Source: a virus (taxonomy: Duplodnaviria; Heunggongvirae; Uroviricota; Caudoviricetes). Taken from it: 64,000 bases of DNA. The stretch lies in IMG/VR virus record IMGVR_UViG_3300031555_002904. One strand, written 5' to 3'. The notes beneath the pieces were generated by a model. That model was not told the DNA's origin. It saw only the letters and a list, made by a program, of their open reading frames with translations, and made no database searches. Positions 1 through 312 of this stretch are shown here, one piece after another. How positions within the stretch are numbered: position 1 is the first letter of the stretch; every line of letters begins with the position of its first letter. The position numbers and the translations under genes were made by a program.

Positions 1-312
1 AGATTAACACATATTCCTACTGGCATTGTGGTGGGGTGCCAGCAAGAGCGAAGTCAACATCAGAACAAAGAAAAAGCCATGAAGATGCTTATCTCAAGGC
101 TGGTTGCTATTAAAGAAAAAGAACACTATGACAACTTGTCTGAAATTCAGGGCGAGCAGAGTCGAATCGAATGGGGCAACCAAATTCGTTCTTATGTCTT
201 TATGCCATATCAAATGGTTAAAGACCACAGGACTAACCACCAAACTTCTAATATTGACGCAGTGATGCGTGGAGATATAGATGAATTCATTTTCAAGAGT
301 CTCGCTGAATAA
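1..312 (+). CDS. prfB: peptide chain release factor 2 (RF2), C-terminal fragment; 5' end lies outside the window
   Basis: Translation [29 protein letters not shown]...[23 protein letters not shown]...[11 protein letters not shown] closely matches the bacterial RF2 C-terminal domain. It is in frame from nt 1, ends TAA, and an intrinsic terminator follows. Confidence 0.85.

Follow-up and report, generated by a model that had tools for sequence, protein, structure and literature searches.

A frameshift-free release factor 2 gene of a TAG-recoding phage and its probable part in a genetic code switch

The IMG/VR virus record IMGVR_UViG_3300031555_002904 (Caudoviricetes) was studied here as a stretch of 64,000 nucleotides (nt), referred to as the window. 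The first 312 nt of the window are almost certainly the end of a genuine prfB gene, encoding peptide chain release factor 2 (RF2), of a phage that recodes TAG. Our best explanation as a whole is that the gene encodes a functional RF2 of a TAG-recoding phage and that the protein acts in the code switch; we put the probability of this explanation at about 0.65. The narrower proposition that RF2 works in the switch in the manner described below is judged slightly less probable, at somewhat better than even odds. The evidence comes from the identity of the gene, its conservation among related phages, the in-frame TAG codons of the phage genome, and a pair of amber suppressor tRNA genes.

The RF2 portion inside the window comprises part of the GGQ domain and the C-terminal region. 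Frame 1 of window 1-312 is open over 103 codons, up to a TAA at 310-312, and the remaining two frames are rich in stops. The translation begins RLTHIPTG and finishes FKSLAE. For this 103-residue fragment, the NCBIfam prfB model TIGR00020 gives 154.9 bits (E 2.8e-45) and the RF1 models give 88 bits; the fragment falls under the prfB cut-off of 370 only because it is 103 amino acids long. It also matches Pfam RF-1 (PF00472; E 1.3e-24). In a PDB search, the solved RF2 chains 6szs/9fy1 come first (E 1.5e-32), with RF1 chains at E 4e-18 or weaker. The close match to the RF2 C-terminal domain given in the initial annotation therefore holds. Its figure of 94 codons does not: homology runs from base 1, and 94 is the length of the open reading frame (ORF) when counted from the first GTG, at position 28.

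The whole gene was recovered from a public contig, L002, found via the exact product of the next gene (482-1303). Lookup of that product led to contigs of several public assemblies, two of which (L002 and L005) are 100% identical to window 1-480. The complete prfB lies at L002:4553-5635, with its start 771 nt upstream of the window, and is a single uninterrupted ORF of 360 amino acids with a GGAGG ribosome-binding site. Its product contains PCRF and RF-1 and has all four domains of a canonical RF2. Its score on the prfB model, 445.5 bits, exceeds the cut-off of 370, whereas the RF1 models (262.3 and 250 bits; cut-offs 400 and 423), PrfH (136.5 bits; cut-off 166.65), and ArfB (45.7 bits; cut-off 100) stay below theirs. 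PrfH and ArfB are truncated relatives of 140-200 amino acids that have a GGQ domain but not the complete N-terminal domains. In PDB, the full-length protein again matches RF2 chains best, namely 9fy1/6szs (E 2.6e-93 and 1.2e-92), with E. coli RF2 next. A PHROGs family with its function listed as unknown, phrog_19918, matches the protein at 307 bits. The SPF tripeptide (VRVSPFD; VRVSPFDSQNRRHTSF) is found in the codon-recognition loop encoded by L002:4553-5635, upstream of the window, and GGQ is present as SSGKGGQHVN, with the end of the motif 10 codons before window base 1. RF1-type features are not seen: the loop has SPF rather than PxT, and the window encodes the RF2-type C-terminal block WGxQIRSYV. 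The corresponding RF1 block is of the type GSGDRSE(R/K)IRTYNFPQ. The initial annotation, which took the gene for RF2, would have been refuted by an RF1 classification or by a lack of GGQ and SPF; the recovered gene has both motifs, and the full-length protein is classed as RF2.

Several searches gave less. A truncated RF2-like family was considered, as the fragment search returned only proteins of 77-179 amino acids, and was set aside given the full gene of 360 amino acids. The short RF2 matches (100-180 amino acids) start at internal residues of full-length RF2, and in the closest, P0001, the one case examined, a scaffold gap causes the truncation. Neither an exact 50-mer from the window nor a peptide-pattern search gave a match in IMG/VR, and megablast of window 1-6000 against GenBank phages gave none either. 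The tblastn matches in 'phages' are mostly unannotated short records resembling bacterial fragments.

Compared with bacterial PrfB (TIGR00020; 6SZS/9FY1; E. coli 1GQE), the phage protein has the same PCRF and RF-1 domains, SPF and GGQ motifs, RRHTSF recognition loop and WGxQIRSYV block, acidic residues at the equivalents of E167/E170/E172, and a score above the prfB cut-off. The phage copy differs in that it is without the +1 frameshift, has two unusual lysines, is flanked by terminator hairpins on both sides, and is only ~52-54% identical to the nearest bacterial-type sequences. A programmed +1 frameshift site, anticipated in the initial annotation, was not found. Codons 20-27 of the L002 gene read VAELLKPQ and include no in-frame TGA; a single uninterrupted ORF with no TGA near codon 26 implies that there is no programmed frameshift. 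The site is likewise missing from the loci L006-L010 and from every 357-362-residue member of the clade described below. Although the frameshift is typical of prfB, it is missing in a sizeable minority of bacteria and is not defining. Its absence fits a release factor freed from autoregulation. In addition, prfB has no in-frame TAG in L002, L006, L007, or L008 and ends in TAA in each, so that this code-change gene is readable in the standard code.

The specificity of the protein can be predicted from its residues. In Salmonella RF2, lysine at E167, E170, or E172 enables UAG reading (PMC7530605). The equivalent positions of phage RF2 are D, D, and E, and a search for the omnipotence-type changes E167K, E170K, and E172K found none of them. 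Since the acidic residues are kept, UAG reading is not expected, and phage RF2 is predicted to read UAA and UGA and not UAG. Rarity of other residues was judged against 149 diverse RF2 representatives. Two lysines are rare: that of GGKE, in place of the threonine of GGTE (4/149), and that of SGKGGQ, in place of the alanine of SGAGGQ (3/149). The recognition loop is otherwise ordinary, and SPFDSQN was rejected as a phage signature, with Q in 38 and N in 30 of the 149 at the respective positions; of the set GGKE/SGKGGQ plus SPFDSQN, only the two lysines are uncommon. In an alignment of 55 sequences, the serine and proline of SPF and the GGQ motif are invariant, and phenylalanine is replaced by tyrosine (SPY) in seven clade members. 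This SPY subgroup consists of P0126, P0128, P0133, P0134, P0149, P0150, and P0161; tyrosine is found at this position in 4 of the 149 diverse representatives.

The full-length protein belongs to a distinct, deep clade of jumbo-phage RF2s. A search with it returned a graded series of single-ORF proteins of 357-362 amino acids, from 99% down to 54% identity, on contigs of up to ~200 kb. After the phage clade come bacterial-type RF2s of 365-376 amino acids, at 52-54% identity. When the library was clustered at 50% identity, the clade was reduced to one representative (726 bits), with the next sequence at 351 bits. The nearest bacterial-type RF2s, where the source is named, are labelled Clostridia, Oscillospiraceae, Acutalibacteraceae, or Bacillota. 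The phage RF2 is under strong purifying selection: the ratio of nonsynonymous to synonymous substitution rates (dN/dS) is 0.075 between prfB copies that are 88% identical.

Gene order is kept at every depth sampled (L002 and L006 to L010), as follows. The first half of the block has a gene of 134 codons, a GC-rich hairpin with a T-tract, RF2, a terminator hairpin, an element of ~70 nt, and a sigma-70-like promoter. The second half has a gene for a protein of 265-273 amino acids, an M28-like peptidase gene, genes for proteins of 455-480 and 104 amino acids, and the tRNA array. The hairpin at the RF2 stop codon (L002 5618-5646, equal to window 295-323, with a T run after it) is retained in relatives whose RF2 identity is as low as 55%, and the changes in its stem are compensatory. 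The upstream GC-rich hairpin and T-tract (L002 4506-4552), between the 134-residue gene and the RF2 ribosome-binding site, is also present in L006-L010, and its stem too has compensatory changes among relatives.

The ~70-nt element that separates the RF2 terminator from the promoter of the gene after it, CTGCTCCGGSCGGC...CGA...CCAAAAG.AAA...TAATTTTT (L002 5675-5743), is likewise kept down to 55% RF2 identity, and no conserved secondary structure was found in it. Two contigs from two other samples, L003 and L004, both begin within this element, at about window position 359. The next gene encodes a protein of 273 residues whose family is confined to these phages; the 164 homologues, none informatively named, come from contigs of up to 202 kb. 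Its AlphaFold model has a predicted local distance difference test (pLDDT) value of 90 and gives weak TIM-barrel matches, with template modeling (TM) scores of ~0.4; these matches do not show a link to translation. The C-terminal part of the protein has an invariant CX3CX5CX2C cluster, suggestive of a metal or Fe-S site, and some relatives of the gene contain an in-frame TAG. For the genes neighbouring RF2, searches of Pfam, NCBIfam, PHROGs, and PDB gave no specific function, only a weak match to M28/M20 peptidases and PHROGs that are uncharacterised or carry the generic label 'peptidase'.

A neighbouring RF2 subtype, of SPFDSQG type and with its own promoter, is encoded at 10001-11113 of another contig, L011. 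This is a different phage, with SPbeta-like genes (YorF, YonG, DnaB, PolIII alpha, NrdD); TAG is the stop codon of 3 among its 23 genes and occurs in frame in none.

The proposal in the initial annotation that the phage reassigns TAG is borne out by single domain matches that run across in-frame TAG codons. In the PIN-PhoH gene, one PhoH match over residues 221-415 covers TAG codon 316. In the endolysin gene, for which the ATG at 60826 is the likely start, an Amidase_2 match covers TAG codon 509, and an SH3_3 match covers TAG codons 808 and 827. Both in-frame TAGs of a homing endonuclease gene, 3.4 kb from RF2, are conserved in relatives, and the one at 3868 aligns with the Q of an internal paralogous repeat (WLC[TAG]CECG versus WICQCECG). 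The tail-fibre-like gene is the weakest case for read-through, since no domain match crosses its TAGs. Permitting TAG read-through joins several ORFs of the window, and the domain matches show the joined products to be real proteins.

Stop codon use tells the same way in relatives. Among 110 called genes in the syntenic loci L002, L006, L007, L009, and L010, none ends in TAG (90 TAA, 20 TGA), and several contain an in-frame TAG. The window ORFs of at least 120 amino acids terminate in TAA or TGA, with TGA making up about one third. L002 and the window seemed to differ by a sense/TAG polymorphism, but their DNA is identical and only the genetic code applied by the gene callers differed. We conclude that TAG is a sense codon in this phage. 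Glutamine is the likely candidate for its meaning, in view of the Q in the paralogous repeat and of the acceptor stems and variable-arm loop of the suppressor tRNAs described below. The PHROG and Pfam matches mark the genome as that of a phage, of roughly 200 kb judging from related contigs of ~200 kb; the matches are to an endolysin, a tail-fibre-like protein, a homing endonuclease, a sigma factor, and RNA-repair genes. The host is probably a Clostridia-type member of the Firmicutes.

The window has 41 tRNA genes, among which tRNA-Trp is represented by CCA only, with no tRNA(UCA). The tRNA(CUA) genes cited initially were located as an abutting pair at 20681-20755 and 20756-20852, with Rfam tRNA scores of 47 and 54 bits. 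Among the other tRNAs of the phage, only its two tRNA-Gln have the acceptor stem of this pair (U1, G2-G5, G73). In the Rfam alignment of the long tRNA(CUA), the CUA arm is the anticodon arm, and a 24-nt insertion lies in the variable region. The insertion forms a 5-bp hairpin (20804-20820) with a 7-nt loop, CUCUGAC (20809-20815), in which CUG occupies 20811-20813. This loop is the anticodon loop of tRNA-Gln(CUG).

The same arrangement recurs in other phages. IMG/VR was scanned for long tRNA(CUA) with a pattern that fixed only the CUA loop, the T-loop, and the spacing (loci L012-L139). The scan yielded 38 distinct long tRNA(CUA), 35 of them with YTGA in the variable region; once three Ser/Leu-like tRNAs are set aside, 34 of 35 have it, where shuffles would give 5.4. 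YUGA sits at the apex of variable-arm hairpins having more than 10 different stem sequences. Control variable arms have the motif in 3 of 47 tRNA-Ser, 3 of 23 tRNA-Tyr, and 0 of 34 tRNA-Leu. Members of the long tRNA(CUA) set have a weak or mismatched 1:72 position, retain G2:C71, and mostly have G as the discriminator; in E. coli, these are identity features for glutaminyl-tRNA synthetase (GlnRS). An equally unbiased IMG/VR scan (loci L140-L259) gave a set of long phage tRNA-Ile(UAU), of ~92 nt, with GAU at the apex of the variable-arm hairpin in 37 of 40 distinct sequences (shuffle expectation 13.9). Typical loops are CAGAUUA and CUGAUAA, and GAU is the canonical Ile anticodon. By eye and uncounted, long-armed phage tRNAs with ordinary anticodons mostly have short GNRA-like loops.

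The simplest reading of both sets is that tRNAs whose anticodon is not the host synthetase's own carry the cognate loop in the variable arm. It is tempting to propose that the 97-nt tRNA(CUA) is a natural 'pseudo-anticodon' tRNA, whose Gln loop could let the glutamine-charging enzyme of the host, ordinarily a reader of the anticodon, recognise an amber suppressor; we hold this tentatively, at a little under even odds. Alternatively, the long arm might have the tRNA charged by the Ser, Leu, or Tyr enzymes instead, and nematode V-arm-containing tRNAs are indeed charged with leucine. A literature search that took in a 2023 review of tRNA identity turned up no natural variable-arm pseudo-anticodon tRNA; its coverage was incomplete, so that an earlier description is possible. 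Engineered amber suppressors are the closest parallel: they carry a cognate anticodon loop at the tip of a long variable arm to recruit the anticodon-binding domain of a synthetase (Mukai 2020, PMC7590224). Those tRNAs are synthetic, with a His (GUG) pseudo-anticodon, and their synthetases are fused to an extra anticodon-binding domain. In contrast, the phage tRNAs are natural, have Gln (YUG) or Ile (GAU) loops, and would need to work with unmodified host enzymes.

The proposed mechanism is as follows. Early in infection, the host machinery would translate the phage prfB. The phage copy would lift RF2 above the autoregulated level of the host and escape feedback. The extra RF2, reading UAA and UGA and not UAG, would make termination of all phage ORFs independent of host RF1. 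The phage tRNA(CUA)s would then have RF1 as their only competitor at UAG, and the long tRNA(CUA) may be charged as a tRNA-Gln despite its CUA, via the Gln anticodon loop in its variable arm. RF2 would thus be the termination half of a code-switch kit, and the suppressor tRNA pair the decoding half.

Several points weigh against this explanation. RF2 that is inactive at UAG cannot by itself remove competition from host RF1, and no RF1 inhibitor was identified. No promoter is recognisable between the upstream hairpin and prfB, and transcription of RF2 may depend on terminator read-through. RF2 and the tRNA(CUA)s lie ~60 and ~40 kb upstream of the endolysin gene and not beside the lysis cassette. 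As for the identity of the inserted residue, comparison with relatives is uninformative, with T and E at TAG positions in orthologues and A in the PhoH structure alignment. Finally, L011 uses TAG as a stop and yet has RF2, which means that carriage of RF2 is not exclusive to recoded phages.

This last point bears on the alternative that survives best, namely that RF2 is a general translation booster or a ribosome-rescue helper, unconnected with recoding. We consider it unlikely. As a booster, RF2 would add termination capacity for a heavy late translation load. In rescue, it would be the factor recruited in ArfA/BrfA-type rescue of ribosomes at mRNA 3′ ends once UAG stops of the host are suppressed. 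The RF2 of the apparently standard-code phage L011 agrees with such a role, as does the wealth of translation and RNA-repair genes in the window (41 tRNAs, a Thg1-like enzyme, an RNA ligase, a nucleotidyltransferase, and phosphoesterases). The best PDB matches, the RF2 chains 6szs/9fy1, point the same way, the first being RF2 of B. subtilis in complex with BrfA, a rescue factor. However, every locus examined in the jumbo-phage clade avoids TAG as a stop, and several have in-frame TAG. RF1 would raise UAA termination equally, yet RF2 is the one that is conserved. Moreover, published surveys associate RF2 with the recoding of TAG and RF1 with that of TGA.

A second alternative, which we regard as quite improbable, is a mismatch with the code of the host. 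The host would read TGA as sense and have no RF2 (code 4 or 25), the phage would supply the factor, and phage RF2 would also truncate host proteins at in-frame TGA. An antagonism model of this kind is described in the literature, being recounted in the introduction of Borges et al. (bioRxiv 10.1101/2021.08.26.457843). The phage does need RF2 activity, as its TGA-ended genes imply: TGA is the stop of about one third of the window ORFs of at least 120 amino acids and of 20 of the 110 genes of relatives. The labels on the nearest bacterial-type RF2s (Clostridia, Oscillospiraceae, Acutalibacteraceae, or Bacillota) nevertheless argue against such a host, since these groups use the standard code. 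The ROOL RNA and the Firmicutes-type sigma-70 promoters argue against it as well, as does tRNA-Trp(CCA) without tRNA(UCA). For these clades, Borges et al. predict standard-code hosts. As to a passenger or decaying host-derived copy with no phage role, phages do occasionally hold recently captured host genes and many 'phage' database matches to RF2 are probably bacterial contamination, but the reading is effectively refuted by the conservation data: the low dN/dS, an ORF intact in all relatives, SPF and GGQ regions kept down to 54% identity, fixed synteny, a terminator of its own, and the large score gap to bacterial RF2.

An RF2 acting in a code switch has precedents, and the idea of RF2 together with TAG recoding is not new, since RF2 in TAG-recoded phages is already published. 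Borges et al. (bioRxiv 10.1101/2021.08.26.457843) found RF2 in the Lak and Agate phages, which recode TAG, and a 2026 survey reports it in code-15 jumbo phages (PMC13037316). In the proposal of Borges et al., the code is switched for late and lysis genes by the early production of suppressor tRNAs, synthetases, and release factors. Like those phages, the present one is large, recodes TAG, and has tRNA(CUA) and RF2, code-change genes in the standard code, and in-frame TAG in lysis and structural genes. It differs in the location of RF2, which heads the array of 41 tRNAs and is tens of kb away from the lysis gene. The missing frameshift, the terminator-flanked layout, and clade-wide synteny are not described in the passages of Borges et al. 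and PMC13037316 drawn on here. The Jade-phage module, with tRNA(UCA), a tryptophanyl-tRNA synthetase (TrpRS), and RF1 upstream of the lysis cassette, is described by Borges et al. as well. It follows a mirror logic: a suppressor tRNA and a release factor blind to the recoded stop, both in the standard code. Here, the pair is TAG/RF2 and not TGA/RF1, the parts are spread over 60 kb, and no aminoacyl-tRNA synthetase was seen among the window ORFs scanned.

RF1-free Salmonella (delta-prfA) offers a direct laboratory parallel. Salmonella survives loss of RF1 only with RF2 overproduction (prfB amplification) or with mutation, e.g., E167K, and a prfB mutation that removes the frameshift arose in one evolved lineage (PMC7530605). 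Extra or unregulated RF2 makes RF1 dispensable there, and the phage prfB is in effect a natural, frameshift-free extra copy. The phage RF2 differs in that it retains the acidic residues, so UAG reading is not predicted.

The features of the window are collected in Table 1. Within the tRNA array, the ROOL RNA is full length (RF03087, 312.6 bits, model positions 1-574) and is followed by an odd, weak tRNA match of 33 bits. An OLE RNA match between tRNA-Lys genes is partial (RF01071, 53.5 bits), covering model positions 439-592 only. The vault-type protein of 826 amino acids, unusual for a phage, has MVP_shoulder (E 1.7e-24) and Vault_3 domains and found no match in PHROGs. The window also encodes an EcoRI-type methylase, a GmrSD/HNH protein, and more than one homing endonuclease. 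Two phosphoesterase genes lie within the RNA-repair region.

Table 1. Coordinates of features in the 64,000-nt window.
Feature	Position	Strand	Remarks
3′ end of phage prfB	1-312	+	last 103 sense codons and TAA at 310-312; RF2 residues 258-360
Terminator-like hairpin	295-333	+	12 pairs and T-tract; RF2 stop codon in loop
Conserved intergenic element	352-420		between RF2 terminator and next promoter
Gene for 273-residue protein	482-1303	+	next gene after RF2
HNH-type homing endonuclease	3763-4491	+	in-frame TAG at 3868, 3886
ROOL RNA	16280-16871	+	in tRNA array
Weak tRNA match	16878-17013		136 nt, after ROOL
Short tRNA(CUA), amber suppressor	20681-20755	+	75 nt; U1.C72 mismatch, G2:C71, G3:C70, G73
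Long tRNA(CUA)	20756-20852	+	97 nt, directly abuts short one; U1:A72, G73; CTA at 20788-20790
OLE RNA, partial match	22527-22610	+	between tRNA-Lys genes
Tail-fibre-like gene, candidate read-through ORF	29560-30657	+	in-frame TAG at 30079, 30334
Major-vault-protein-type gene	30777-33257	+	826 amino acids
RNA-repair region	35167-44574	+	nucleotidyltransferase, two phosphoesterases, RNA ligase
Nucleotidyltransferase	35167-36045	+	RNA repair
Thg1-like tRNA-His guanylyltransferase	38923-39786	+	
Sigma factor	40627-41547	+	
RNA ligase	43147-44574	+	RNA repair
NAD genes	47858-52668	+	Sir2, NAPRTase-like, NAD synthetase
Sir2	47858-48709	+	
NAPRTase-like	49635-51380	+	
NAD synthetase	51853-52668	+	
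SPFH/Band-7 protein	56994-58514		
PIN-PhoH gene	59492-60754	+	codon 316 (60437) is an in-frame TAG, located between Walker A and B
Multidomain endolysin	60805-63351	+	Peptidase_M15, lysozyme, Amidase_2, SH3_3; TAG at 62329, 62950, 63226, 63283

The RF2 gene is one more case of a published pattern, in which a TAG-recoding phage has a release factor that ignores TAG. New for this lineage are a canonical RF2 without the autoregulatory frameshift, an old and strongly conserved phage clade, and a fixed block beside the tRNA array. These three features make the gene a clean candidate for testing if extra RF2 frees phage termination from RF1. The neighbouring candidate pseudo-anticodon suppressor tRNA is more interesting than RF2, which is ordinary in kind. 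If true, pseudo-anticodons would explain a missing step, the charging by the host of phage tRNAs with 'wrong' anticodons (CUA, UAU), and the pseudo-anticodon arms would be a natural design rule for orthogonal suppressor tRNAs. Together with the frameshift-free RF2, they would then provide a defined, testable parts list for switching a standard-code cell to code 15.

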